Shown here in pieces: positions 1,705 through 55,330 of a DNA stretch of 64,000 nt. The notes under the pieces were generated by a model. It was not told the origin of the DNA, ran no database searches, and worked only from the letters and a program-made list of their open reading frames with translations. Within the stretch, counting starts at the first letter, position 1. The number at the start of each line of letters is the position of its first letter. The position numbers and the translations under genes are program-made. Source of the DNA: an uncultured Candidatus Saccharibacteria bacterium (GTDB lineage Bacteria; Patescibacteriota; Minisyncoccia; UBA6257; 1-14-0-10-44-23); contig CAYMXN010000001.1 in assembly GCA_964394435.1 (NCBI GenBank), forward strand, positions 170,428-234,427, written 5' to 3'.

Positions 1705-2118
1705 ATGCGGCCGAAAATTCCGGTGGTTGATGGATTGAGCTGTGCGATTTCGAGGCTCGTTTATCTCGTCGCAGGCCTTCTTGAAGAACATTTCAAGAAG
1801 CTCAAGCTGGTTTCTCCTTATGACTATGCCGGGTTCGACTTGGAGGTGGTTGATCGCGAGGAGGCGTATGTAGCTCTGAAGATACGCCCGCGAGGATGGG
1901 GAGAGGTTGCTGAAATCTATGCGACCTTTCATCGTCAGAATCGGCATGGGAAATACTGGAGCTGGTCTTTCGGTGGGGGGAGGGTTCTCGCTCCCGGAGC
2001 TTGTGGATGGCTCTCCTTTGAGCCGATGCGAGATGCTGCTACCGGAAAGATAATTCTCGGGAAGGTTGTTTCGCCGGCGCAGAAGGTTCCGCTTACAACT
2101 GCGGATATCCCGGTTTAG
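1705..2118 (+). CDS. Hypothetical protein in a GC-rich island
   Basis: An SD (ggaggtaagcg) precedes the ATG. 137 aa. No domain recognised. Confidence 0.45.
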   Translation: MRPKIPVVDGLSCAISRLVYLVAGLLEEHFKKLKLVSPYDYAGFDLEVVDREEAYVALKIRPRGWGEVAEIYATFHRQNRHGKYWSWSFGGGRVLAPGACGWLSFEPMRDAATGKIILGKVVSPAQKVPLTTADIPV

Positions 2119-2213
2119 CGTGTGTCTTGAAAATTGATTGTTTTGCCCCGAGGGTCTGACTCTCGGGGCGCTATCTTTTTAAAAATGCAATTTACGTTTA
2201 TACTCACATCTAT

Positions 2214-3485
2214 ATGAAACCATTTTCGAAAATGACACTGCCGAACGGCCTGAAGATTATTACGGTTCCGCAGGCTGGTGCGGTAGCGATGACTGTGCTG
2301 ACACTAGTTGAGTGTGGGAGTAAGTATGAGGAGAAGCGGATTAATGGTATCTCGCACTTTTTAGAGCACCTATGTTTTAAGGGTACGACGAATCGTCCTA
2401 AGCCGAGTATGATTGCGGGTGAGCTAGATGGCCTTGGTGCGCAGTCAAACGCATTTACGAGTCATGAGTATACCGGTTATTACGCCAAGGTGAGTGCGGA
2501 TAAGGGAGAAAAGGCTTTGGAGATTATTGCGGATTTATATATGAATCCGATTTTTGATGCTGATGAGATTGAGCGTGAAAAGGGTGTGATTATTGAAGAG
2601 ATTAATATGTACGAGGATATGCCTCAACGGAAGATTGGTGATTACTTTATGTCGCTTTTATATGGAGACCAGCCGGCCGGTTGGGATATTGCCGGTGAGC
2701 GCGAGCTTATCAAGAAGATGATGCGTGAGGATATTGTGAAATATCGGAGTCAGCACTATTTACCGGCTGCCACTACGTTGGTTATTGCTGGCGGTTTTGA
2801 TGAGCAAAAGATTATTGCGCGGGCTCAAGAGTTATTTGGGACGATGGCCGGAGGCGTTAAGGCGGGTAAGGTGGCGGTTAAGGAAAGCCAGAGTGAGCCG
2901 GCGGTATTTTTGAAATACAAGAAATCTGATCAGGCACATATTGTACTTGGTGTTCGGGCGTTTGATTTGAGCGATGATCGTCGTTATGTGATTGAGGTCT
3001 TGGGCGATATTTTAGGAGGCGGTATGAGCTCGAGGTTGTTCCAGTTGCTCCGAGAAAAGTACGGCGCAGCGTATTACGTCCGCGCGGGAGCTGATTTGTA
3101 TACGGACCATGGTTATTTTGCCGCATCAGCTGGACTTGAGCTTTCCAAGGCCCAGATGGTAATTAGTGAGATCTTGAAAGAGTTCAAGCGTCTGACGACT
3201 GAACTTGTTTCTCCGGAAGAGCTGGCGCGCGCAAAGAGCCATATGATTGGCAACTTACTTTTAGGCTTGGAGGGTTCGGACGACTTGGCGGTATTTTATG
3301 GAACACAGGAAGTGCTTCGTCATACTGTTATGACGACTGATGATTTGATTGCGGCGGTTAACAAGGTGACCGCGGAAGAGATTCGTGATTTGGCGAAATT
3401 CTTATTTGTGAAAGAAAAATTAAACTTGGCGATTATCGGCCCGTACGAGCAGGTGGATGAGTTTAAGAAGTTGCTCGTGCTCTAG
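2214..3485 (+). CDS. M16 family zinc metallopeptidase (insulinase/pitrilysin-like)
   Basis: Carries the inverted zinc motif HFLEH near the N-terminus. 423 aa, typical of M16 peptidases. Confidence 0.85.
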   Translation: MKPFSKMTLPNGLKIITVPQAGAVAMTVLTLVECGSKYEEKRINGISHFLEHLCFKGTTNRPKPSMIAGELDGLGAQSNAFTSHEYTGYYAKVSADKGEKALEIIADLYMNPIFDADEIEREKGVIIEEINMYEDMPQRKIGDYFMSLLYGDQPAGWDIAGERELIKKMMREDIVKYRSQHYLPAATTLVIAGGFDEQKIIARAQELFGTMAGGVKAGKVAVKESQSEPAVFLKYKKSDQAHIVLGVRAFDLSDDRRYVIEVLGDILGGGMSSRLFQLLREKYGAAYYVRAGADLYTDHGYFAASAGLELSKAQMVISEILKEFKRLTTELVSPEELARAKSHMIGNLLLGLEGSDDLAVFYGTQEVLRHTVMTTDDLIAAVNKVTAEEIRDLAKFLFVKEKLNLAIIGPYEQVDEFKKLLVL

Positions 3486-3546: not shown

Positions 3547-3867
3547 TTGGCTAGCACGAAAGGAGTGATTATGAGTATTTGTGGTTGGGTGGCGAATGAT
3601 CCCGATCCTGACTCCGATATTGAGCCCAGCCTTGAAGCAGTTGAGCTTGCGACCGTGCAGTATCGGGTTGCGTATGAACCACACCGGGCGCGGCAGCTTT
3701 GCTCTCTAATTAGTAGCCGCATACAGGCTTTTGCGAGGCGTTATCCCCAAATTGCGATGCCTGGCGGTAAGGGCCTCGAGAATCCTTTTTTGGCGATCTC
3801 CTTGCTTGCGCAGCTCGAGCAGAAGATTCGTGATATGCACGATTGGGGCTGGCTTTTGGCGGGGTAG
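3547..3867 (+). CDS. Hypothetical protein (GC-rich ORFan)
   Basis: A strong SD (aaaggagtgatt) precedes the ATG. GC-rich. No domain recognised. Confidence 0.4.
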   Translation: MASTKGVIMSICGWVANDPDPDSDIEPSLEAVELATVQYRVAYEPHRARQLCSLISSRIQAFARRYPQIAMPGGKGLENPFLAISLLAQLEQKIRDMHDWGWLLAG

Positions 3868-6972: not shown

Positions 6973-7815
6973 ATGTTTGATGCGCATACGCACGTTCACT
7001 TTCCCGCTTTTGATGCTGACAGGCCAGAAGTGATGAAACGTGCTCAAAAAGAAGGAATTAAAATGATTACGGTTGGTACTCAGCTCTCCACTTCTCGTGG
7101 GGCGATTGAGTTTGCGCGAAAATATCCGGGCGAGGTTTGGGCGACGGTCGGATTTCATCCCGGACACGTTGGTAGTGCTGAAACGTGGCATCATGATGCC
7201 AAGGAGCAGAAAGAGTCTGTCAAAGAGTCGTTTGATGCCGATGCGTTTGCAGAGCTTGCTGACGACGAGCGAGTGGTTGCGATTGGCGAGTGTGGTCTCG
7301 ACTACTATCGTTTTGACGGATTGACCGAACGACAAGTGATGCTTTTAAAAGAAGAGCAGAAAAATGTGTTTATCGCCCAGGCGCAAATTGCCTTAAGTGT
7401 TGGGAAGGCGCTGATGATTCACTGTCGACCCTCGAAAGGAACGGATGACGCGTATGAAGACTTACTTTCTATATTATCGGCTCCGATTTATGCGCCGCTG
7501 AAAAAAGTGCTGCATTTTTATGTTGGTTCATCGGCGATGACGAAGAAATTTGTTGATGCTGGTTTTTATTTTACCTTTGGTGGCGTTATCACCTTTAGTA
7601 GAGATTATGATGCAACAATTGCGGTGATTCCGATGGATAGGATATTAATGGAGACTGATGCGCCATATGTGGCGCCAATGCCGTACCGAGGCAAGCGAAA
7701 CGAACCATCTTTTGTTGTTGAGTCAGCTAAAAAAATGGCGGAGCTCAAGGGGGTTAGCTATAATGAGATGGAGCGAATTACTGAAGAGAACACTAAACAT
7801 GTTTTTAGCATTTAA
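6973..7815 (+). CDS. tatD: TatD family metal-dependent hydrolase (deoxyribonuclease)
   Basis: N-terminal MFDAHTHVHF histidine cluster and overall TatD length and pattern. Confidence 0.85.
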   Translation: MFDAHTHVHFPAFDADRPEVMKRAQKEGIKMITVGTQLSTSRGAIEFARKYPGEVWATVGFHPGHVGSAETWHHDAKEQKESVKESFDADAFAELADDERVVAIGECGLDYYRFDGLTERQVMLLKEEQKNVFIAQAQIALSVGKALMIHCRPSKGTDDAYEDLLSILSAPIYAPLKKVLHFYVGSSAMTKKFVDAGFYFTFGGVITFSRDYDATIAVIPMDRILMETDAPYVAPMPYRGKRNEPSFVVESAKKMAELKGVSYNEMERITEENTKHVFSI

Positions 7816-10823: not shown

Positions 10824-11305
10824 AGCTTGATTCCTTTTATAGGTGCTTTTCTTACCCTATGCTTTTTAAAAATATTTGTCGAGATTATAAATAAAAAAGC
10901 CGCAGGTCTCTTGTGGAGTTGCGGCAGAGTCTGATCTCGCACCTTGCGAGACAGAGGGCTCGGCGAGTGGTGAGCCTCGCCTGGTTGTTGACGGAGAGCA
11001 GCTTCATCAGGGAAGGGATCGGAAACCTAGTTTGCTGCTCGCGCGATACTTTTACCAAATGTTTCTCTTTCAAGGATCGCTCCTTGTATCCGCTTGAGGC
11101 GAACTAACCCGCGGGCTAGTTTGCGGTCCAGCACGTGGTCCTGGCTTGCTGGAGTTTAATCTGATATCGGTTGTCGCGAATCAGCGATCTTTGCGTTTTT
11201 GATTACGCTTAGATCCCGTTGCTGATAATCTTAATCATATTGAGTTATTTTTTTGCGTCAAATAAAAAACTCTGAATATGTGGGTGTATATTCAGAGTTG
11301 GTATC

Positions 11306-11602
11306 TTACGATGCGCTCGCTAGGATCAGCTTGCGTCCCGATGAGTTGCCGAGCGCGAGGGAGACAATCGCTTGCTCGCCGCTGGCGTGGAGCCGGACTT
11401 TGTACTTTGGGTCGACGAGCGTAGCGACGGGACACTTGATTCGCTGTTGACCTCGAAGATCAATCTCATACAGAGACTTTCCGCGAATCCTTTCGAGGAT
11501 GCGGGTGATTACCGGAGAGCTTGGTTCGCCATAGAGAACTAGTCTGCCTGCGGGCATATATCTCCTTTTTTGTAGGCAGAAGGGCTTCTTATAGAGTGCC
11601 AT
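11306..11602 (-). CDS. Hypothetical protein with a degenerate P-loop-like segment (LVLYGEPSSPVIT)
   Basis: A minus-strand terminator (aactctgaatat hairpin at 11262-11300) directly follows the stop. Could be a remnant of an AAA-type ATPase. Confidence 0.3.
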   Translation of the reverse strand: MALYKKPFCLQKRRYMPAGRLVLYGEPSSPVITRILERIRGKSLYEIDLRGQQRIKCPVATLVDPKYKVRLHASGEQAIVSLALGNSSGRKLILASAS

Positions 11603-11631
11603 TTTTCTCTATATTTATCCACATCCACCTA

Positions 11632-11665
11632 TCTATTGACGCTTTTTCTGCCTTTTGATACACTA
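11632..11665 (+). promoter_or_regulatory. Candidate promoter upstream of 23S rRNA (TTGACG-N17-TACACT)
   Basis: Sequence pattern about 500 nt upstream of the mature 23S 5' end. Confidence 0.3.
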
Positions 11666-12172
11666 CTGGGCATTGGTCATTAACCCACCTAATGCGAAAT
11701 AACTTATACATTGCGGCAACAAACCATTCAACCTTTTCCTAACCGGGAAAGTTTTGTATTGCGTTTGACTCGCCGCTCTGAATGAGCGGTTTTTCTTTAG
11801 ATGATTTAGTTGACTAACGAACTTTTAAAAATCCAGTTTTGCATCATCGCTCCGCAAGTTGCATCGAGAGGTGCGCGGTTCGCACATAGTGCGTTTCATA
11901 ATGCGTGTGTGATTTTGCAGAATATATAGTTTCGCGTTTTTTCTAGGGGAAAAACCGCGAGACAGTTTTGTATCACCTCATGACATCGATGGTGGTGCAA
12001 AGCAAACACGTTTTACGAGTAGCAGACACTGTTATCCGTTTGTGAAAGGTAAAACAAAAATGTTCTGGTTTACACACGCGTCGCATTGCGTGGTAAATGC
12101 AGTTCGCATTCATATATGAAGAGTATTTGAATGATCAGTTTAGACTTTTGTCGCAAGACAAAAGAAATATGT

Positions 12173-15205
<3,033 letters not shown>

Positions 15206-15371
15206 TACATATTTTTTCTGGTCTTATATGAGCACACACTTAAGAGTGTTCATATGAGATACGGAATTCTAAACTGATCATTCAAGTACTTCATCAAACA
15301 AGTACTTGTACCAATACCCCTAGAGCGCTTCAAACGCTCGTCTGAAAAACCCGTAATTGTCTTTAAGGGTT

Positions 15372-15489
15372 TCTCGGTGATTTAGTTCTGTGTGTCCCAC
15401 CTCTTCCCATTCCGAACAGAGAAGTGAAAGCACAGTTCGCTGATGATACTTACTGCAAACCGCGGTTGGGAAAGTAGGCTTCGCCGGGA
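15372..15489 (+). rRNA. rrf: 5S ribosomal RNA
   Basis: Carries ccgaacagagaagtgaaag and gggaaagtagg blocks. Terminal helix tctcggtg/cgccggga. A terminator-like hairpin plus T-run follows. Confidence 0.85.
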
Positions 15490-15594
15490 TTCCTTTGTAG
15501 AGAATTGCGGGTTTTTTGTTTGACGAAATCTTTTAGATACGATACGTTGAAGAAAGTGGGTAGCGTCTCCTTTCAATTACAAGGGGGTCTACGT

Positions 15595-31406: not shown

Positions 31407-31446
31407 GAAATCTCTCGTCAGCAACCCCAAATGGAGGCGTTTCGGC

Positions 31447-31578
31447 ATGGTCCCTCGGAAGCGAAGGAGTCGGTTGCCCGGGCGGAACCGAAGTAAGCAT
31501 GCACACGCGGTGCGGGCGGCGGAGGCCGAGAAGAAGCGCGAAGCCGAGCTCAAGAAGGACGAGCGGTCGGCGAAGTAG
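31447..31578 (+). CDS. Small highly basic protein (43 aa; MVPRKRRSRLPGRNRSKHAHAV...); possibly ribosomal protein bL32-like
   Basis: RBS ggagg. Strong promoter and strong terminator. The N-terminal RS..G..RS.H.A motif loosely resembles bL32. Confidence 0.35.
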   Translation: MVPRKRRSRLPGRNRSKHAHAVRAAEAEKKREAELKKDERSAK

Positions 31579-31592
31579 TCTGACTTTTCGGC

Positions 31593-31640
31593 GTCGGAGC
31601 GGCGGAATACCTATTCCTGTCCGCTCCTTTTTTATTTCAG
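31593..31640 (+). terminator. Intrinsic terminator (ggagcgg...ccgctcc plus tttttta)
   Basis: Hairpin plus T-run. Confidence 0.55.
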
Positions 31641-31710
31641 CTATATTTGACAGGGTATTTTTGAATCGGTACGTTAATATAAGTTCCTTCTCTTTCCGGA
31701 GGTTTGTCGA

Positions 31711-31965
31711 ATGAGCTCTCTTCGCTATTCTCGGAGTGCTCGCAGCGTACCTGCTCGGACGAGCGCGACCAAGCGTTACGCGCTTAAGCGAGACGGTAAG
31801 TTTCAGGTACGTGCGGCCGATGGAAAGCCTCGCGATTGCCGTGACAAGGAAAAGCCAACCCCTTTTAGTGACTATGATTTGGCGATGAAGACGGCACGTT
31901 ATCTCAATGGCCAGCTCGCCGCTGATGACGCGATGTTTGAGGTCGTCGACTATCCGACTGATTGA
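31711..31965 (+). CDS. Hypothetical protein (84 aa, GC-rich)
   Basis: RBS ggagg. A terminator follows. Confidence 0.45.
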   Translation: MSSLRYSRSARSVPARTSATKRYALKRDGKFQVRAADGKPRDCRDKEKPTPFSDYDLAMKTARYLNGQLAADDAMFEVVDYPTD

Positions 31966-34011: not shown

Positions 34012-34826
34012 TAGCGAGGCTTTACGAGTGCACGATTTTCAACGGTAAGATCAACATACTCAAATCCGGATAAGCCGGGACTAATGCGAAGCTTTTTAAG
34101 TGCGGGGAGTGCGCTAATTGTTGGGTCGAATCGGAGACTGAAGTAGATGTTCGTACCGTTTGCTGCTTCAATTTCGACGCGAAAATCTTTGCGCACAATA
34201 CGAATTTCTTTTACTGCTAACTGCATTTGCTTAACTGTATCAAGAATCTTTTTCGCATTTGTAAACGCGTAGGCGTCTAGTACATTATCTCCAATTACAA
34301 ATTGGCTGCTGGTCGCATATTCGGTTATTTTGGTGATAATTTGCCCATCGGGAATAGCGGATGGTTCAAATGCGATTCCCTGCGTGTCTATCCAGTAGCA
34401 TTGTTCGAGAAATGCTGGTTCTTCGCCGGTGATTGCTGGTGCGATGCACCAAACGGCATATTGTGTTCGTGGAACAACTTGGATACTTATCGTTCGACTT
34501 AAAAAATCTTTTACGATGCTTGTTGAAGCGTATTCAATGTTTGAGTATTGGATAGTTGGGTCCCAGGAGAGGTAGTTTTCGGTGCCGAACAACCTGCCCC
34601 AAAATGTTGTTGCGATTTGCGGCTTTAGTTTCTCGATGAGCGCTGTTGGTTCGATATCGTCTGCCCCGATAACACTGATGCGTTGTATTTTAAAAAGGCC
34701 GGTAAAGCCGATACTGTAGGCGATTATGATGACGACGAGCAAGGAAACGCCAAGCCACGCATATACTTTAATGCGCTTAACTTGCTTCTTCTTTTTGTAG
34801 CGTGTGTTTCCGTAGAGCTGGTTCAT
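34011..34826 (-). CDS. ftsQ: FtsQ/DivIB-like cell division protein (N-terminal basic tail, one TM, POTRA-like region)
   Basis: Architecture and operon context (alr, GIY-YIG, this gene). Confidence 0.55.
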   Translation of the reverse strand: MNQLYGNTRYKKKKQVKRIKVYAWLGVSLLVVIIIAYSIGFTGLFKIQRISVIGADDIEPTALIEKLKPQIATTFWGRLFGTENYLSWDPTIQYSNIEYASTSIVKDFLSRTISIQVVPRTQYAVWCIAPAITGEEPAFLEQCYWIDTQGIAFEPSAIPDGQIITKITEYATSSQFVIGDNVLDAYAFTNAKKILDTVKQMQLAVKEIRIVRKDFRVEIEAANGTNIYFSLRFDPTISALPALKKLRISPGLSGFEYVDLTVENRALVKPR

Positions 34827-35086
34827 CCCGTTAGAGATAGGAAGCGCCCCATCCTATTTTTCAGATAGCGCTTACCCATACCAGTTTTTAAATACACTTC
34901 TCTCGACCGGGCGTCGTCGCGATCCAAACACATCTTACAGTATATGAGTGCGAATGGTCCACGATTTTTTGTCCACTGCGATTGGTTCATGTTGTGTTGA
35001 GTGAGGCGCTTCCGTATGTCATTCGTAAATCCAGTATACCAGCGTTTATCTTTTTTGCTTTGCAGGACATAGACGTAGTAAAACAT
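34823..35086 (-). CDS. Stand-alone GIY-YIG nuclease-domain protein (UPF0213-like)
   Basis: FYYVYVLQS...RWYTGFTNDIRKRLTQHN GIY-YIG signature. Confidence 0.75.
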   Translation of the reverse strand: MFYYVYVLQSKKDKRWYTGFTNDIRKRLTQHNMNQSQWTKNRGPFALIYCKMCLDRDDARSREVYLKTGMGKRYLKNRMGRFLSLTG

Positions 35087-36342: not shown

Positions 36343-36639
36343 TTAGCGTCTCATTTGGCGACGCACTTCGGGGTCTTGCAGAAGCATGTCCATGAACTGC
36401 TTCTGCTCCTTGCCGACGGTGCCGGGCGGCTGCAGGAGAAGGATTCCAAAGGCGCGCTGGACGCTCTGCGCGGCTCTGCGCGTATACCCCTGCAAAACGT
36501 CGCGATGCGGCGGTGAATGCATCGCAGTCTTTACGACATGATCGACCGCACCGCGGTCGATCGCCGAGCTTTCGGGGCGAAAGACGTCGTGCAACCCGTC
36601 CTCCGTGTACTTAATTCTCGGCCGAGACGAAACTGACAT
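36343..36639 (-). CDS. Hypothetical protein (GC-rich ORFan)
   Basis: RBS ggaggg. A terminator hairpin (cccccaggtacg...cgtacctagggg) lies downstream. Confidence 0.45.
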   Translation of the reverse strand: MSVSSRPRIKYTEDGLHDVFRPESSAIDRGAVDHVVKTAMHSPPHRDVLQGYTRRAAQSVQRAFGILLLQPPGTVGKEQKQFMDMLLQDPEVRRQMRR

Positions 36640-40856: not shown

Positions 40857-40966
40857 TGGGGTAGAGATATGAATTACGAGTTATGAAGTGCGAACTAAGA
40901 GGCGAGAATAATTATATTGAAAGTATATCACGGGTTGGGCTGATTTTGATGCTTAACCGTACCCTA

Positions 40967-40994
40967 TTGACAAATATTTATAGTGTGCTATAAT
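40967..40994 (+). promoter_or_regulatory. Consensus sigma70 promoter TTGACA-N16-(TGc)TATAAT with extended -10
   Basis: Exact consensus hexamers, seen in the sequence. No ORF lies downstream. Confidence 0.6.
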
Positions 40995-41000
40995 ACTTTT

Positions 41001-41590
41001 ACCGACGTGGATGGGCCCTGAGCCCCTCTCCACGGGCGCGTGTTTTTTGCGATGCGTGTTTTTGAGGTAGGTTGTTCGAGTGATTAGCCCCCGGTGGCCG
41101 TACACTTGAATCCCCTCCTCTGTCCGGGTCGACAACGACTCGGAGGTTCGCGGATACTCGACTTGGTAGGTCGAGTCGGGACGTGGTCTTATCGGACCAA
41201 CCCGCGCAGGTCCTAGAGATAGGGCCGAATTCCTCCTCTGTCCGCTGAGGGGGTACGGTCATCGCCGGGATAGTAGTGGGGTGCGAAAGTAACTCCACGA
41301 CAAAGAGCTATCTCGACCGATGGTTGAATGAGCTTTAGGTAAGCTCTGGGTGAATCGTCAGCACCCTAAATTGAGATGGATTGGCCTGCAACTCCGGGGG
41401 TCAATGTCAACTCAAAGCTAGTCGTGCGAGTCATCGGCGTGTACCAAATGCTACGATGACAGCGACGAACAGGTTTCGTACTCTGCCTGCAGTGTGCGTC
41501 GCAAGTTAACGGGTTAAATTCCCGTCGATGTGCACAAAGAGTGCTCTTCCCCTGGTTGCCGTAAAGCGTAGCCAGGGGATCTTTTTATTC
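41001..41590 (+). ncRNA. Candidate large structured ncRNA (about 590 nt, about 58% GC), class unknown
   Basis: Bracketed by the consensus promoter above and an intrinsic terminator (cccctggtt...agccagggg plus ctttttatt at 41549-41590). No ORF of 60 aa or more on the plus strand. Many internal hairpins and a repeated cctcctctgtccg motif. Confidence 0.35.
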
Positions 41591-49258: not shown

Positions 49259-49330
49259 CGCGGGGTAGAGCAGTGGTAGCTCGTCTGGCTCATAACCAGA
49301 AGGTCGGGGGTTCAATTCCCTCCCCCGCAA
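49259..49330 (+). tRNA. tRNA-Met (anticodon CAT), initiator-like (C1 x A72 mismatch)
   Basis: Manual fold gives acceptor CGCGGGG/CCCCGCA with an unpaired 1:72, U8, D arm GAGC-AGTGGTA-GCTC, anticodon loop CTCATAA, T arm GGGGG-TTCAATT-CCCTC. Only two G-C pairs at the base of the anticodon stem. CCA is not encoded. Confidence 0.8.
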
Positions 49331-49418
49331 CTCTTCGTCGCCTTACTCCTCAGAGTCTTCGACTTCGCCTTTAAGGCGACGAAGACACTGAGCGAAGCGA
49401 AGTGATACAATTTAAGAG

Positions 49419-49664
49419 ATGCGTTTCTTTGTCTATATCCTCGAATGTGCCGATGGTTCTTTTTATGTTGGCTACACTAATGATTTAAATAAGCGAATTA
49501 GGCAACACAATGAATCAGATTATGGCTCGTGGTACACCAAACTTCGCCGGCCAGTTTTTTTAAAATATTCTGAAGAATTTTCAACTCTCGTAGTGGCTCG
49601 GCGAAGAGAGCGTGAAATTAAAGGCTGGAGGAGGGAGAAAAAACGAGCCTTATTTGAGAAGTAA
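49419..49664 (+). CDS. Second stand-alone GIY-YIG domain protein (UPF0213-like)
   Basis: FFVYILECADGSFYVGYTNDLNKRIRQHN signature. Paralogue of 34823..35086. Confidence 0.7.
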   Translation: MRFFVYILECADGSFYVGYTNDLNKRIRQHNESDYGSWYTKLRRPVFLKYSEEFSTLVVARRREREIKGWRREKKRALFEK

Positions 49665-49711
49665 CCCACTCCTTCACACCCCCATAATACCGAGTATAAA
49701 TCCGAGAGCTA

Positions 49712-50121
49712 GAAAAAGGGCGTGTCTGCGCTTCGCAACACCCCCCGCAATACAGGGGAAAAAATCACCCTACGCACTCCCCGCCGAGCGAGTTCGTGAG
49801 CTGTCGCTTAATTTATCACTCACTCTTAGATACCTTCCTCGGTGCAGAATGCAAACTTAGCTGTTACATATAATTTAAAAGGGCGCAACCAGATCTCTCC
49901 AGTTACGCCCAATACTCCTTTATCTTTACGCGACCGAAATTGATCGCGCTCCTATTCTTGTCCGAAGAATTTCACTTCGGACTTGCGCTTCGGCCGAGAA
50001 TAGGACTTCCGGCCTGCAAGGTAGGGCGGGATTGCCCAAAGCCAATCCCTCGACTGGACGTTCCCATCCGTCCAATCCCCGTGACCGAGTGGTTCAGGCT
50101 TGAGGCCTTTTACCACTTGTC
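49712..50121 (-). ncRNA. Candidate structured ncRNA (about 410 nt, GC-rich), class unknown
   Basis: Consensus promoter on the minus strand (TTGACA at 50151-50156 plus-coordinates, N17, TATAAT at 50128-50133). No ORF. Terminator-like hairpin gggtgt...acgccc plus U-run near 49712-49745. Confidence 0.3.
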
Positions 50122-50127
50122 TTTTCC

Positions 50128-50156
50128 ATTATAGCATATAGCAATATACTTGTCAA
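50128..50156 (-). promoter_or_regulatory. Consensus sigma70 promoter TTGACA-N17-TATAAT (minus strand)
   Basis: Exact consensus hexamers, seen in the sequence. Confidence 0.55.
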
Positions 50157-50195
50157 TAGTCTGTACTTTTCATGTTTTGTGGCAGTTTTTCGTAG

Positions 50196-50872
50196 AAATA
50201 AAAGGGCCCTCCATCTTTTCCTTGCGGATTGGATGAAGGGCCGGGCGGAGCGGGTGCTGTGACGGTCGTACAGCGCATTGGTGTGTCATGACTTCCACCA
50301 GCGGCTATTTCGGATTGGAGCTTTTTTGTTGGTCGCACTTTTTCGCGTTTGTGCGACTTCCCTTATCGGCGCTTGCGCACCGGTTCGGTACTCTCAGGCC
50401 TGCTAATGATCCACCTCGGCGAGAGGACTTTTTCTGTTTCAGATGCTTGCGCACCTAATTGGAAATCATCCTGTGGGCAAAGATGGGACGCAGACCTAGA
50501 CTCTCCTATTCCGTAGTCGGCTTTGTTCTTGCGAACGGGGCTCTCTAGTGGACAGGTTGCGCGTTTTGTTTTTATCCGGGTGGTATTTAGGTCACCTGGG
50601 CAAAACGCAGAGTCTTAGCTCCTACTAAAGTCACGGAGGGTAGCTTCTGGGGCTAGCGGTGAAGCCAGCTTATCCATTCGCTTTTCGGTATCAGGCGCCA
50701 CGTTAGACGCCTAATTCGCCATTCCTGGGGGGCTTTAGCAATTCCTTTTTACGGGTTTCGCCTTGCCTCGCGGAATGTTTCCGTGCTTCCTACCGACGGA
50801 GTATTCGTTCCAAAGGAGGCTTTGAGGGTCGCCTCTGGATACTCCTGCCACAACAGCATCGCTGCCGTCGTA
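50196..50872 (-). ncRNA. Candidate large structured ncRNA (about 680 nt, GC-rich), class unknown
   Basis: Promoter-like TTGACA-N16-TACTAT (plus coordinates 50879-50906) immediately downstream of the gatA stop. No ORF of 60 aa or more. Minus-strand terminator (ggcccttcatc...gatggagggcc plus cttttattt) at 50196-50242. Confidence 0.25.
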
Positions 50873-50949
50873 GAAGCTATAGTACTCCCCTGCGAAAATA
50901 TGTCAATAGCCCCAACGCGGAGCTGTGGATAACTTAGTTTTATGAAAAG

Positions 50950-52392
50950 CTATGAGTTTTCGTACAAACGCCCGAGTCCTAGTATATCTGCTTCTCTCCA
51001 AGGCTTGCCCATAAGCTGAAATCCGATTGGCAAGCTACCCGCTGGGACACGCGCCGGGATAGAGATCGCCGGAATACCCGCGAGGTTGGCTGGAATAGTA
51101 AAAATATCTGAAAGATACATTGAGAGTGGGTCACTCGCCTTTTCGCCGATCTTAAATGGGACAGTTGGGGTGACTGGAGTAAGAATCGCGTCCACTTCTT
51201 TAAACGCGTTAGTAAAGTCGTCAGTGATATACTCTTTTACTTCGAGCGCTTTCTTGTAGTACGCGTCGTAGTAGCCCGATGAAAGTACAAACGTGCCAAG
51301 CATAATACGTCGTTTAGTTTCCGGACCAAATCCGAGACCCTTCGAGCTCTTATACAGACCGGCGAGATCGTGTTGGCTACGCTCTACACCAGCGACATTG
51401 GCGTACCGAATACCGTCAAAACGCGAGAGGTTGGAGCTCGCTTCGGCTGGTTGAATAATGTAGTAGCAGGAAAGTGCGTACTTGGTGTGCGGGAGGCTGA
51501 TTTGTTTAAACTTCACTCCGAGTTTTTCATAGGTTTTAATAACTTCATCAATCGCTTGGCGCACTGCTGGCTCAATACCGTCGATAAAGTACTCTTTTGG
51601 CAATCCGAGCGTCATCCCCTTTAGTTTTTCAAAGTCGGGTGCGAGCAAGTCTGCGCCATATTGCGTATCAGCCGTCGTATTGTCATATGGGTCCTTACCC
51701 TTAAGTGCATTAAACAAAATAGCAGCGTCTTCTACGGTTTTAGTAAATGGGCCTATTTGATCGAGACTCGAAGAGAGTGCGATTAATCCCGAGCGTGAGG
51801 TTGAGCCGTAGGTCGGCTTGAGTCCAACTACGCCACAGAAAGCGGCTGGCTGACGGATTGAGCCTCCGGTATCTGAACCAAGACTCGCAGTCGCCATATC
51901 AGCGGCAACCGCAGCAGCACTTCCTCCCGAGCTTCCGCCAGGAACGCGTGAAAGGTCGTGTGGGTTTTTAGTCGGCCCGAAAGCGGAGTTTTCAGTCGAA
52001 CTACCCATCGCAAACTCATCGAGATTAGTTTTACCGATAAATACAGCGTTTTCCTCTTTAAGTCGTTTAATCACAAACGCGTCATAAACCGCGGTGTAAT
52101 TTTCGAGCATTTTTGATGACGCGGTTGCTTTTTCACCGGTAATTAAAATATTGTCCTTGATAGCAATCGGAACGCCAGCAAGTGGCGAAATAGTAGTGCC
52201 GCTTGCGATGAGCTCGTCTACTTTTTTGGCTTGCTCAAGTGCAGCCTGATCATTATGCGCAAGATATGCGTGAATATCCCCGTCTTTTGCGTTGATTTGA
52301 GCTATATATGCCTGCGCAACTTCAGTTGCTGTAAACTCTTTTTTTACCAGCCCATCATGAGTTGCTTTGATTGAAAGATGTGTAAGATCCAT
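50950..52392 (-). CDS. gatA: Glutamyl-tRNA(Gln) amidotransferase subunit A
   Basis: Amidase signature region (GGSSGGSAAAVAA). 480 aa. Follows gatC. Confidence 0.92.
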   Translation of the reverse strand: MDLTHLSIKATHDGLVKKEFTATEVAQAYIAQINAKDGDIHAYLAHNDQAALEQAKKVDELIASGTTISPLAGVPIAIKDNILITGEKATASSKMLENYTAVYDAFVIKRLKEENAVFIGKTNLDEFAMGSSTENSAFGPTKNPHDLSRVPGGSSGGSAAAVAADMATASLGSDTGGSIRQPAAFCGVVGLKPTYGSTSRSGLIALSSSLDQIGPFTKTVEDAAILFNALKGKDPYDNTTADTQYGADLLAPDFEKLKGMTLGLPKEYFIDGIEPAVRQAIDEVIKTYEKLGVKFKQISLPHTKYALSCYYIIQPAEASSNLSRFDGIRYANVAGVERSQHDLAGLYKSSKGLGFGPETKRRIMLGTFVLSSGYYDAYYKKALEVKEYITDDFTNAFKEVDAILTPVTPTVPFKIGEKASDPLSMYLSDIFTIPANLAGIPAISIPARVPAGSLPIGFQLMGKPWREADILGLGRLYENS

Positions 52393-52393
52393 A

Positions 52394-52687
52394 TTATTCC
52401 TTAAAGATTGGAGGAATTTTTAAAAGCCGGCCCTCTTTTTCGGGGAACTCCTTGATAATCGCTTCTTGATTTACAAAATGATTCGGCTGCGTATCAGCAT
52501 CCTCGCGCAAAAGAACACGTCGAGGACGAGCAGTATTAATTGGCCGAGCTGGCAGCTCAGAGAGCTCATTGAAGTGGTCGAGAATTTTTGAAAAGTCCTT
52601 AATAAACTTTTCTTCTTCATTTGGATTGAGCTCAAGTCGGGCGAGATTTGCTAAACGCTCGAGTTCATTTTTATCAATTGATGCCAT
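52394..52687 (-). CDS. gatC: Glutamyl-tRNA(Gln) amidotransferase subunit C
   Basis: 97 aa, immediately upstream of gatA. Typical GatC length and charge pattern. Confidence 0.8.
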   Translation of the reverse strand: MASIDKNELERLANLARLELNPNEEEKFIKDFSKILDHFNELSELPARPINTARPRRVLLREDADTQPNHFVNQEAIIKEFPEKEGRLLKIPPIFKE

Positions 52688-52764: not shown

Positions 52765-52862
52765 AAGCCCTCCCACTCCTGGGCACCCTTAGATGGGATA
52801 AGAGTGGTTGCGGGGCGCTGAAGGCTGGATCATCCAGCTCGAGGCGCCCTCTTTTATTTCAT
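52765..52862 (+). ncRNA. Candidate small RNA (about 95 nt) in the ligA-gatC spacer, on the strand opposite to both genes
   Basis: Promoter-like TTGACA-N16-TACTAT at 52723-52750. Nested perfect hairpin (ggggcgc..gctgga-tca-tccagc..gcgcccc) plus TCTTTTATTT at 52812-52860. Confidence 0.25.
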
Positions 52863-54890
52863 GAAATCTAGAAATTCTTGTTCGTTGAGTATTTTTACAC
52901 CAAGCTGCTCCGCCTTGTCTTTCTTAGAGCCAGCTTCAGCCCCTGCTACAACATAGCTTGTTTTTTTAGAAACAGATTCAGAGATGTCTCCGCCTAAGTC
53001 GCGGATTTTTTGTTTCGCCTCGTCTCTACTCATCGAGGAAAGTGTTCCTGTAAGTACAAACGAAAGACTCTTAAGCTTGGAGCCTTTAGGTTTACTTTGT
53101 GGACTTTCGATGGTAATACCGGCGCGTGAGAGCTTTTCTAGTAATCCAAGATTGCGTTTTTCCTCAAACCAATCATAAATACTTTGCGATACCTTGGGAC
53201 CGATATCCGAAATCTCCTGGAGTTGCTCGAGGGTAATCTGCTTACCCTTTTGAATAAGTTCGTCAATTGAGTGCGCTTGAAAAGCTTGGGCGAGTAAAAT
53301 AGCCGTCTCTTCGCCGACATGCATAATACCGAGACTATACATAAACTTAGCTAGAGGGATCGTTTTTTTGCCGGCAATCTCCTGGACCAGATTTTGTGCG
53401 GACTTTGCGCCAAATCGCTCCAGAACTTCGATTTCTTTCGCCTCAAGGTCGAAAATATCAGCCGCATCATCAATCAAGCCTTCATCTAACAGACGGTCAA
53501 TAATCTTCGGGCCAAGCCCCTCAATATTAAACGCACCCCTACCCACAAAATGATAGAGTTGCTCGCGGTGCCTAGCTCCACACTGCGGATTTGGACAGCG
53601 ATAGATAACGCCATCGCGGACTACCTTGGAACCGTCATATGGACAAATCTCTGGCATCGCAAATGTACGCGCATTTTTTGGGCGTAACTCCGGAAAGACT
53701 TTAATGATTTTCGGAATTACATCTCCGGCACGACTTACCACGACCGTATCACCGATTTTAAGACCAAGCCGCTCAATCTCATCCGCATTGTGCAGTGTTG
53801 AGTGCTTGACAATAACCCCACCAACCTCAACTGGAGTGAGTACGGCGACCGGTGTGAGCGCACCCGTTCGTCCGACTTGTACCACAATATCTTCGACGGT
53901 GGTTGTTTTTTCTTCAGCTGGAAACTTGTAGGCGATTGCGGCACGCGGCGTCTTGCCGATTACTCCTGCCGCTTCAGCGATTACATTGTCATTAATACTT
54001 ACGACAATTCCATCAATTTGATACGGAATTTTGGAACGCTTTTTATTGATTTGCGTGTGAAATGCGAAAACCTCTTCGAGTGAGCTGACGGTTTTACCCT
54101 CGGCGGCGGTTTTAAATCCTAGTTGACGGAGCGCCTGATACTCACCTGCTTTGGTCTTGTACTGCATATCGCTCGTACGCAAAAAATATGCGTGAAAGTC
54201 GAGTTTGCGACTTGCGGCAACTCGTGGATCGAGCTGGCGAATTGATCCGGCGACGAGATTGCGCGGATTAGCATATGGTTTTTCGCCTTTTTTCTCTTGC
54301 TCATTATTAATACGCTCAAACTCTTTTGTGGCAAGAAATGCTTCACCGCGAATAATTGTTTTTTTGGAAATTGGCGCGGCGTTCGATTGAAGATTGAGAG
54401 GAATTGAGTCGATGGTTTTGAGATTTTGCGTAATGTCTTCGCCAAACTCGCCATCGCCACGAGTTGAGCCTTGAATAAGCACTCCATTTTCATATACGAG
54501 CTCAACCGCGAGACCATCCATTTTGAGATCGCAGAAAAAATCCAAGCTTGTGGTTTGCGGCTGATAGTTGATGGATTCTAAATAGTTTAGAAGGCGCTCA
54601 TACCAGTCGCGCATATCCTGTTCGCTAAATGCGTCATTAAGCGAGATCATCCTCGTCTCGTGCCTTACCTTCACAAACTCTTTTAGGGGCTGCCCGCCGA
54701 CGCGCTGCGTTGGGCTATCAGGAGTAATAAGCTCGGGAAATTGCTGCTCTAAGTCAAACAACTCCTTTTTGAGGGAGTCAAGCGCCGCATCAGATATCTC
54801 TTGCTTGTCCAGCACGTGATACTGATAGCGGTGATAATTAATAAGCTCTTTGAGCTTGGTTATGCGCTCCTGGGCAGCTTCTTTATCCAT
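52854..54890 (-). CDS. ligA: NAD-dependent DNA ligase
   Basis: Adenylation domain, OB fold, Zn finger (CPYDGSKVVRDGVIYRCPNPQC), HhH and BRCT-like C-terminus. 678 aa. Confidence 0.92.
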   Translation of the reverse strand: MDKEAAQERITKLKELINYHRYQYHVLDKQEISDAALDSLKKELFDLEQQFPELITPDSPTQRVGGQPLKEFVKVRHETRMISLNDAFSEQDMRDWYERLLNYLESINYQPQTTSLDFFCDLKMDGLAVELVYENGVLIQGSTRGDGEFGEDITQNLKTIDSIPLNLQSNAAPISKKTIIRGEAFLATKEFERINNEQEKKGEKPYANPRNLVAGSIRQLDPRVAASRKLDFHAYFLRTSDMQYKTKAGEYQALRQLGFKTAAEGKTVSSLEEVFAFHTQINKKRSKIPYQIDGIVVSINDNVIAEAAGVIGKTPRAAIAYKFPAEEKTTTVEDIVVQVGRTGALTPVAVLTPVEVGGVIVKHSTLHNADEIERLGLKIGDTVVVSRAGDVIPKIIKVFPELRPKNARTFAMPEICPYDGSKVVRDGVIYRCPNPQCGARHREQLYHFVGRGAFNIEGLGPKIIDRLLDEGLIDDAADIFDLEAKEIEVLERFGAKSAQNLVQEIAGKKTIPLAKFMYSLGIMHVGEETAILLAQAFQAHSIDELIQKGKQITLEQLQEISDIGPKVSQSIYDWFEEKRNLGLLEKLSRAGITIESPQSKPKGSKLKSLSFVLTGTLSSMSRDEAKQKIRDLGGDISESVSKKTSYVVAGAEAGSKKDKAEQLGVKILNEQEFLDFMK

Positions 54891-55003: not shown

Positions 55004-55330
55004 ATGACATCTCCCGCTCCGTCTCTTCGTTTGGAGCAGAATCTCATCGTCCAGGGTGACCTGACGATGGTTGTCGGAGGTATCCCGGTCATGAGTTTCG
55101 ACGGTGGCCGCGAAGCGGAGACCGTTGTCAACTTTCTGCGCTGCGGCTGTCTGGCAGTTCAGCTGACTGATGATCATTCGGAGGAAGTGCTCGCCCGCGG
55201 CACTGCGAGATTAAAGAAGTATCTTGATGCGTTGGCGATGAGTGGAGAGGAGTTCATCGTTGCGCAACATTCGAATGCTGCGGAGGACAACTATCACGTC
55301 CTCATCGTCACGCGAGTAGCGCAGTCGTAG
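55004..55330 (+). CDS. Hypothetical protein (GC-rich ORFan)
   Basis: 108 aa. Weak RBS. Followed by terminator cccgcaa...ttgcggg plus atttttatt at 55355-55390. Confidence 0.4.
   Translation: MTSPAPSLRLEQNLIVQGDLTMVVGGIPVMSFDGGREAETVVNFLRCGCLAVQLTDDHSEEVLARGTARLKKYLDALAMSGEEFIVAQHSNAAEDNYHVLIVTRVAQS

Follow-up and report, generated by a model that had tools for sequence, protein, structure and literature searches.

Among the large noncoding RNAs (ncRNAs) of bacteria, GOLLD and ROOL RNAs travel with prophages beside tRNA genes, and OLE RNA, about 600 nt long and strongly conserved in sequence, is found in extremophiles of the Bacillota. Bacteria of the candidate phyla radiation (CPR) have very small genomes that can spare little space for non-essential DNA, and in the literature that we searched on CPR bacteria and Parcubacteria, the universal RNAs are the only large structured ncRNAs described. 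Here we analyze two tandem units, which we call U1 and U2, on the minus strand directly downstream of gatCA in a 64,000-nt stretch of contig CAYMXN010000001.1 (positions 170,428 to 234,427; hereafter the window, with positions counted from its first letter), which belongs to a metagenome-assembled genome (MAG) of a Parcubacteria-like member of the Patescibacteria. We think it fairly probable that U1 and U2 are transcribed separately, as genes for structured RNAs that are stable, act in trans and belong to new lineage-restricted classes. Their transcription, stability and action in trans, as well as any contact between the two, are what we infer here.

Two tandem noncoding units downstream of gatA

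A first-pass annotation of this DNA had proposed two noncoding units in tandem, each independently promoted and terminated, and the sequence motifs that we identified support this arrangement (Table 1). The TTGACA-N16-TACTAT promoter that it placed right after the gatA stop codon begins 44 nt past that stop, and the perfect TTGACA-N17-TATAAT promoter that it reported for the second unit was found as described, with a TG extension in addition. Promoters that match the consensus at all 12 positions occur just twice on the two strands of the window, compared to about 0.02 expected by chance according to our own arithmetic, and both of them front noncoding units, namely U2 and a third unit near 41 kb, U41 (discussed below). 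The U1 terminator with its 11-bp stem near 50196 was likewise confirmed; the stem consists of GGCCCUUCAUC...GAUGGAGGGCC, with an inner stem UCC-GCAA-GGA, and it sets the length of U1 at 677 nt, in good agreement with the roughly 680 nt proposed. The second unit, which had been put at about 410 nt, proved to be shorter, because a strong terminator that had been overlooked (a 13-bp stem at 49910-49881 followed by UUUUAAAUU) ends it after about 247 nt. The hairpin and U-run that had been taken as its end near 49712 are present as well (~49746-49712), and they close a weakly structured read-through tail whose fold is no better than chance (z -1.3). This second terminator lies 48 nt ahead of the stop codon of a convergent gene for a small GIY-YIG protein, while the strong terminator halts U2 about 215 nt before the GIY-YIG coding sequence is reached. 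We infer that the tail is probably a backstop terminator that shields the convergent gene from antisense transcription. Neither unit has the layout of a cis-regulatory leader, as what comes after the U1 terminator is the U2 promoter, and all that lies downstream of U2 and its tail is the antisense strand of the GIY-YIG gene.

No protein-coding gene was recognized in either unit, as the first-pass annotation had stated. Within 49875-50872, the longest open reading frame (ORF) with an ATG, GTG or TTG start encodes 64 aa when both strands are considered and 61 aa when only the transcribed strand is; ATG is not the start of any transcribed-strand ORF of 40 aa or more in U1 and U2. An 82-aa ORF with a GTG start on the plus strand (49612-49860) covers only the tail and the 3' end of the GIY-YIG gene. 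The Logan annotation of a contig that carries the same region (L083) calls no gene in U1 or U2, and ten ORF products from U1, U2, the tail and U41 were absent from a collection of 15 billion proteins (NCBI, Logan, JGI and ENA) by exact lookup. The Fourier period-3 signal-to-noise ratio was 1.4 for U1 and 0.8 for U2, compared to 0.4-0.95 for 23S rRNA and 3.4-6.7 for genes of the window, three small genes of about 100 aa included.

Predicted structures of U1 and U2

The secondary structures of both units are single-sequence predictions. The fold of U1 (50190-50875) reaches -252.5 kcal/mol, compared to -202 kcal/mol for dinucleotide shuffles (z -8.7, and -7.7 in a separate control run), and that of U2 reaches -112 kcal/mol (z -6.7, also against dinucleotide shuffles). 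The opposite strands gave z-scores of -1.4 (U1) and -3.8 (U2), while among segments used as controls, 11 coding segments of U1 length ranged from -2.5 to +1.8 and four segments of the host's own 23S rRNA from -0.8 to -4.6. Local folding windows on the minus strand were consistently negative in a scan of the intergenic sequence. In U1, five hairpins with stems of 4 bp or longer are capped by GNRA loops (GCAA in three cases), compared to 0.33 expected and to none in the reverse complement; in addition, the inner stem of the terminator, 3 bp long, has a GCAA cap. Three GNRA-capped hairpins are present in U2 (p 0.007), and the host's own 23S rRNA has nine in 3 kb, most of them GCAA. Taken together, these folding and GNRA signals would be hallmarks of a folded functional RNA encoded on the minus strand.

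The predicted fold of U1 is multidomain, with about 30 helices, and is closed by a 9-bp helix between its 5' and 3' ends (UGUUGUGGC / GUCACAGCA); the sequence GGUGCGCAAGC is present twice. U2 is predicted to form a 5' hairpin, a Y-shaped domain whose two hairpins each begin with GGGAUUGG, a multibranch domain and the terminator. Its third domain (49950-50005) is predicted to pair in either of two mutually exclusive ways, as an 18-bp helix UCCUAUUCUCGGCCGAAG/CUUCGGACAAGAAUAGGA (16 pairs and two mismatches) or as a pair of local hairpins, the latter being the minimum-free-energy fold, and it may be switch-like. Both units are about seven points richer in GC than the window (53.5% each vs. 46.8%); the value of about 58% given earlier for the stretch was too high, as we measured 50.9% for 49680-50945. 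The transcribed strand is rich in A and poor in U (17% U in U1). The sequence GATCCACCTC, which had been likened to the 3' end of 16S rRNA, does occur once (50408, plus strand), but the likeness to 16S is unsupported: the transcribed strand reads GAGGUGGAUC, a 6-nt match of Shine-Dalgarno (SD) type such as chance would produce in 680 nt, and one that lies within a predicted U1 helix.

The two units also carry repeats that could pair with each other. U1 contains CCAAUCCG twice and UCCAAUCCG(C/A)AA twice (50231-50318, minus strand), and the GGGAUUGG of U2 is complementary and present in two copies 30 nt apart (50042-50079, minus strand). Such a two-by-two arrangement of complementary 7-mers between U1 and U2 occurred in 0.3% of shuffles, a k-mer statistic from a test that was defined post hoc. 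These repeats could reflect U1-U2 pairing or hairpin modules that the two RNAs share.

The gatA-tRNA slot in related bacteria

On the minus strand the gene order is ligA, gatC, gatA, U1 and U2, and beyond these lie the plus-strand genes for the GIY-YIG protein and tRNA-Met (about 540 nt past U2), followed by murD. A second small gene encoding only a GIY-YIG domain is present elsewhere in the window (34823-35086, minus strand), its product 42% identical to the one beside U2, and small GIY-YIG genes also adjoin tRNA genes in two other Patescibacteria loci (L019, 12373-12510, and L005, 13564-13701).

Table 1. Coordinates of U1, U2 and associated features. Positions refer to the window, except those of the slot RNAs, which refer to their own loci; z denotes the folding z-score.
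Feature	Position	Strand	Description
U1	50872..50196	minus	Noncoding body, 677 nt
U1 promoter	50906..50879	minus	TTGACA (50906-50901)-N16-TACTAT (50884-50879); 10/12
U1 intrinsic terminator	50242..50196	minus	11-bp stem 50242-50232 / 50215-50205, then CUUUUAUUU to 50196
U2	50121..49875	minus	Noncoding body, ~247 nt
U2 promoter	50156..50128	minus	TTGACA-N17-TATAAT with TG extension; 12/12
U2 intrinsic terminator	49910..49872	minus	13-bp stem 49910-49881, GAGA loop, then UUUUAAAUU
Read-through tail ("U3")	49874..49712	minus	~165 nt; second hairpin ~49746-49718 and UUUUU
U41	40966-41585	plus	Noncoding; body 41001-41585 (~585 nt); promoter TTGACA-N16-TATAAT, 12/12
gatA	50950-52392	minus	Amidase domain match, 4e-149
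gatC	52394-52687	minus	GatC domain match; upstream of gatA
ligA	52854-54890	minus	DNA ligase domains; upstream of gatC
tRNA-Met	49259-49331	plus	Own 11/12 promoter; convergent with RNA units
GIY-YIG-only protein gene	49419-49664	plus	81 aa; convergent with RNA units
L096 slot RNA	2000-2660		~620 nt; z -6.4
L086 slot RNA	10966-11275		~275 nt; z -6.9
L091 slot RNA	7447-7665		~170 nt; z -9.9
L019 slot RNA (Staskawiczbacteria, 55% GatA identity)	11440-12145		~670 nt; z -3.9; followed by tRNA and GIY-YIG gene

For comparison we fetched 178 loci (more than 1.3 Mb) that were found via relatives of GatA in GTDB genomes, JGI metagenomes and Logan, ENA and NCBI contigs. A protein 100% identical to the GatA of the window is encoded on a 320-kb NCBI contig and in several Logan assemblies, and five Logan or NCBI copies of the U1/U2 region are identical. 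The next relative of GatA, from a 1.3-kb JGI fragment, is 94% identical, and the others reach at most 71%; those with labels come from Harrisonbacteria, Liptonbacteria, Parcubacteria or Patescibacteria MAGs. The JGI fragment (L177) extends only over the 5' part of gatA (81% nucleotide identity), and its sequence departs from that of the window ahead of the RNA region. Searches with nhmmer using U1, U2, the tail, U41 and the RNAs of relatives described below found no homologue in the fetched loci, and a covariance model of the U2 body (R1) found no relative in 49 loci, nor in the four RNA-bearing relatives with filters off. Six degenerate 24-nt patterns derived from stop-free translations gave no match in IMG/VR or JGI metagenome contigs, and blastn of the RNAs against phage and plasmid collections showed no similarity.

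The first-pass annotation had suggested a comparison of the regions downstream of gatCA in relatives: structured units do occur there in some of them, but U1 and U2 themselves were not found. GatA identities of the eight nearest relatives, both to the window and among themselves, are 62-70% except for one cluster at 82-83%. What follows gatA in these eight is a structured RNA (3/8), an ORF of 186 aa (3/8), a response regulator (1/8) or an ORF on the opposite strand (1/8). In the three with an RNA (L096, L086 and L091), the slot between gatA and the tRNA has a common design, with a TTGACA promoter at the gatA stop, a GC-rich body, an intrinsic terminator and an adjoining tRNA(Asp) gene. A fourth such RNA is found in a more distant locus from Staskawiczbacteria (L019), and none of the four has a match in Rfam. 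Right after the RNA unit of L019 and about 100 nt upstream of its intact tRNA, there is a partial duplicate of the 5' half of that tRNA (12195-12365), which may be a scar of integration or recombination. The gap after gatA is 1.73 kb in the window vs. 0.33-0.95 kb in the relatives.

One candidate for a shared element was a GUCA(A)CAGCAC motif of U1 and the L096 RNA, about 20 nt before the terminator and pairing with a 5' UGCU(C)GUUG, but it is suggestive at best, because chance alone would give about three occurrences in the DNA searched, where we saw one. Either the slot RNAs descend from one ancestor and have diverged past recognition with a four-fold change in length, or the slot has been refilled repeatedly. 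In more distant Patescibacteria, the gap after gatA can contain inverted repeats or repeat arrays (L143, 5428-6381; L097, 5425-5776; L005, 11422-11817); the first two fold with z-scores of -12 to -35 on both strands, and the third consists of repeated GTCATTCCCGC units. These are palindromic elements at the DNA level and not RNA genes, and their presence favors the view of the slot as a hot spot for at least part of the pattern. The 186-aa ORF belongs to a family of predicted membrane proteins that follow gatA in many Parcubacteria, with the motifs YKLAIxEAD and HxxRN and no Pfam family (L089, 7451-8011; L094, 3094-3654; L093, 7391-7960; and about ten others), and it is absent from the window.

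Interpretation and alternative explanations

In the interpretation that we favor, each unit would be made from a near-consensus (U1) or consensus (U2) sigma-70 promoter and ended by its own intrinsic terminator. Transcription of gatCA probably continues into U1 as well and ends at the U1 terminator, because no terminator was found between the gatA stop codon and the U1 promoter. The RNAs would fold into multi-helix, tetraloop-rich architectures, and the closing helix of U1 would protect it against exonucleases. Both would act in trans as folded RNAs, as a protein-binding scaffold or ribonucleoprotein (RNP) or as a catalytic RNA, and not as mRNAs or cis leaders; we favor such roles over antisense regulation because of the size of the RNAs, the closing helix and the density of tetraloops. 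Any contact between U1 and U2 may run via the duplicated complementary 8-mers, two copies of CCAAUCCG in U1 and two of GGGAUUGG in U2. In some related Parcubacteria, the slot between gatA and the tRNA would hold structured RNAs that are unrelated to these or have diverged unrecognizably.

Several results weigh against this interpretation. The searches yielded no homologue of either RNA, so that the folds, each predicted from a single sequence, have no support from covariation. Pairwise local alignment of all seven RNAs gave no score above shuffles, and U2 has no structural match among the slot RNAs of the relatives; this lack of shared sequence or structure is unlike a conserved housekeeping RNA. 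The palindromic and repeat DNA in the gaps of distant loci indicates that the slot also gathers structured DNA that is not genic. The complementary motifs of U1 and U2 lie within predicted intramolecular helices. Finally, some Logan contigs of the same organism, from three samples, are interrupted within the two units: L001, L082, L084 and L085 end in U1 (at about nt 242 or at the terminator) or in U2 (nt 79), and these breaks could be due to low coverage, strain heterogeneity or an accessory element.

The possibility of an accessory element has to be considered first among the alternatives. U1 and U2, perhaps together with the GIY-YIG gene, could be the cargo of a mobile insertion, foreign or of fast turnover, in a tRNA-adjacent hot spot, in which case the RNAs would serve the element (in defense, counter-defense or its own maintenance) instead of core physiology, by analogy with GOLLD and ROOL. 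The variable content of the slot among the eight closest relatives fits this explanation, as do the wide gap in the window, the tRNA and GIY-YIG genes that adjoin the RNAs both here and in L019, the partial tRNA duplication beside the L019 RNA, a GC content above the genome average and the contig breaks in three Logan assemblies. On the other hand, a repeat search around the U1/U2 region revealed no flanking direct repeats or att-like tRNA fragment, the genes and domains of the window include no integrase, transposase or phage gene near the two units, and no similarity was found in IMG/VR, in phage and plasmid collections or in JGI contigs. The promoters, moreover, have the host-type consensus. 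Overall, we regard a mobile insertion as unlikely, though well worth keeping in mind.

We think it quite improbable that the units are cis-acting or by-product transcripts with no function in trans, with U1 being the 3' untranslated region (UTR) and terminator of gatCA, and U2 with its tail an antisense or insulator transcript by which the GIY-YIG gene would be controlled or shielded. The missing terminator between the gatA stop and U1 would be in keeping with such a role, and so would the structured units right after gatA in four relatives and the second terminator that halts U2 read-through 48 nt before the GIY-YIG stop codon. However, a UTR has no need of dedicated consensus promoters, one of them perfect, and a GNRA-rich multidomain fold of 680 nt far exceeds what termination requires. 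In addition, the strong terminator stops U2 well before the GIY-YIG coding sequence.

A decayed protein gene (gatB, the 186-aa post-gatA gene or another) or an unrecognized small-protein gene is a far weaker explanation, to which we attach very little probability. The first-pass annotation had expected gatB after gatA, but we did not find it directly after gatA in any of the Patescibacteria loci examined. Using a Bacillota GatB as the tblastn query, we detected gatB in 51 of the fetched loci, directly after gatA in all but one; the loci with an adjacent gatB are labeled Firmicutes, Deltaproteobacteria and similar, and the exception (L034) is the sole Patescibacteria locus with a detectable gatB, which lies 6.5 kb downstream of gatA. 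As gatB is unlinked from gatA in the Patescibacteria loci examined, nothing is "missing" after the gatA of the window. The annotation was right, in turn, that a decayed gatB is unsupported: the same search at E<=1e-5 gave no match in the 64-kb window, a Pfam search of stop-free segments in all frames at E<=1 gave nothing beyond two sub-threshold scores of about 12 bits, the six frames concatenated (1566 aa) had no match at E<=1 among 5.8 billion predicted proteins, and the period-3 signal is absent. A remnant of the 186-aa gene was rejected as well, since a hidden Markov model of that family gave negative bit scores on every frame of U1, U2 and the analogous RNAs. What can be said for a protein gene is that one minus-strand frame of U1 has just four stops in 243 codons, that a 37-codon ATG ORF begins 15 nt past the predicted U1 start in a host with many leaderless-type starts, and that other GC-rich islands of the window do encode small proteins. 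The scarcity of stops is explained by the U-poor composition of U1, and pseudogenes do not show such a folding z-score or enrichment in GNRA loops.

Known RNA families were searched with cmscan and Rfam 15 (4227 families), at gathering thresholds for the window and with relaxed filters at E<=10 for 49300-51100. This was a check that the first-pass annotation had proposed, and no family matches U1 or U2. The scan at gathering thresholds returned just 23S and 5S rRNA and three tRNAs from the whole window, and the relaxed scan gave chance matches of 10-22 bits to unrelated families, with no match in its range to RNase P, signal recognition particle (SRP) RNA, 6S, GOLLD, ROOL, OLE, raiA, HEARO, T-box, intron or riboswitch models. 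Its one tmRNA row (10.2 bits, 49300-49323, plus strand) falls on the 3' end of tRNA-Met, outside U1 and U2, and ARAGORN found no tmRNA, two-piece forms included. For the P4 helix of RNase P (GGAAAGUCC paired with ACAGAA..CCGGCUUA), the 3' strand is absent from U1, and the sole AAAGUCC of U1 pairs locally with AGGAU in the predicted fold. There was no covariance-model match to 6S or SRP RNA, and the minimum-free-energy fold of U2 is multibranched, with local 5' and 3' hairpins, and is not a 6S-like rod. Group I and II introns likewise gave no covariance-model match, and both units lie between genes and have promoters and terminators of their own. A highly divergent housekeeping RNA (RNase P RNA, tmRNA, SRP RNA or 6S RNA) that standard models have missed is therefore very hard to credit. 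In favor of it, the strongest promoters of the window point to RNAs that are abundant, the window was found to contain none of these four, and 6S RNA is poorly conserved in sequence. Against it, no family matches at E<=10, ARAGORN is negative, the AAAGUCC has no P4 partner, U2 is not 6S-like and, by our inference, three units in 64 kb are too many to be explained by four genes that happen to cluster in a genome of about 1 Mb.

A third unit and other features of the window

The comparison with the 41-kb unit, another of the checks that had been proposed, showed that U41 is the same kind of object as U1 and U2, without any sequence similarity to them. Its terminator lies at ~41545-41585, its fold has a z-score of -6.8, and it has no ORF, no period-3 signal and no Rfam match at E<=10. 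The sequence CCUCCUCUGUCCG, with an anti-SD-like CCUCC core, is present twice. That a reduced genome has three units of this kind within 64 kb is the most striking aspect of the window.

It cannot be said that all GC-rich islands of the window are RNAs, as those at 31.4, 36.4 and 55.0 kb hold small ORFs with coding periodicity. Such islands (55-65% GC; 31430-31965, plus; 36343-36639, minus; 55004-55330, plus; 1037-1333, plus; 3547-3867, plus) are genes for small proteins of 49-108 aa that appear noncoding at an ORF cut-off of 110 aa, some of them with strong promoters; coding periodicity was confirmed for the five genes at 1037, 3547, 31711, 36343 and 55004. Many genes of the window have a TATAAT-like -10 element that ends about 5-8 nt before the start codon and no SD sequence (for example 16348 and, on the minus strand, 31325, 36274 and 49216), which suggests that leaderless mRNAs may be widespread in this host. 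A minority of starts have a GGAGG (for example 1037, 1705, 36639 on the minus strand, and 47033). A 23S-5S pair lies at 12194-15490 (plus strand), with the 23S match spanning 3014 nt for a model of 2925 positions, and no 16S gene is present in the window, indicating an unlinked rRNA operon.

Implications

This locus gives about 1 kb of contiguous DNA, and a further 0.6 kb at 41 kb, to noncoding units that are consensus-promoted, fold extremely well and belong to no family. If they are real, they represent new large RNA classes and become candidates for RNA-only or RNP assemblies of the kind seen for GOLLD, ROOL and OLE, at a syntenic locus with a rapid turnover of such RNAs; if they are instead the cargo of an accessory element, they mark a tRNA-adjacent hot spot in Parcubacteria. 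It is intriguing to consider a broader proposal, which we see as possible rather than probable, in which U1, U2 and U41 are the first members of new classes of "ornate" RNAs, large and rich in tetraloops, in a lineage of Parcubacteria that has been sampled sparsely, expressed from the strongest promoters of the region, with U1 and U2 joined in a hetero-RNA complex via their 8-mers and the slot between gatA and tRNA(Asp/Met) serving as a conserved cradle for very fast-evolving ncRNAs. Were this true, a density of three such genes in 64 kb would mean that the gene complement is unusually rich in RNAs for a genome that is reduced. The immediate value of the analysis lies in concrete coordinates that can be tested.

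Comparison with known systems

U1 and U2 have what is found in stand-alone bacterial ncRNAs, namely their own promoter and terminator, a noncoding body and structure beyond chance. Like ROOL and GOLLD, they are stand-alone, multi-helix and tetraloop-rich units of several hundred nucleotides near tRNA genes, with neighboring proteins that are uninformative as to function, but they differ in having no covariance-model match at E<=10, no phage context and no known family of homologues, and in forming a tandem pair with consensus promoters of their own. As to genomic context, tRNA genes are near U1, U2 and the analogous RNAs of relatives; no phage genes were found near the two units, and no similarity to IMG/VR or phage databases. 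OLE RNA resembles U1 in its size, complex fold, probable abundance and predicted role as an RNP scaffold; unlike U1, which has no Rfam match, conserved relatives or partner genes nearby, OLE has a conserved sequence and is flanked by oapA/B/C. With 6S RNA and fast-evolving regulatory RNAs, the units share a strong sigma-70 promoter, an intrinsic terminator and conservation of position rather than of sequence, although 6S is a rod of about 180 nt with a central bubble and neither U1 nor U2 is predicted to fold in this way. Small RNAs derived from 3' UTRs are similar to U1 in that it directly follows gatA with no terminator between and has its 3' end in common with the gatCA transcript; those RNAs are typically 50-200 nt long and act by base pairing, whereas U1 has 677 nt, its own promoter and a ribozyme-like density of GNRA loops. 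U1 and U2 would be a new instance of the large bacterial ncRNA kind, outside every described family.

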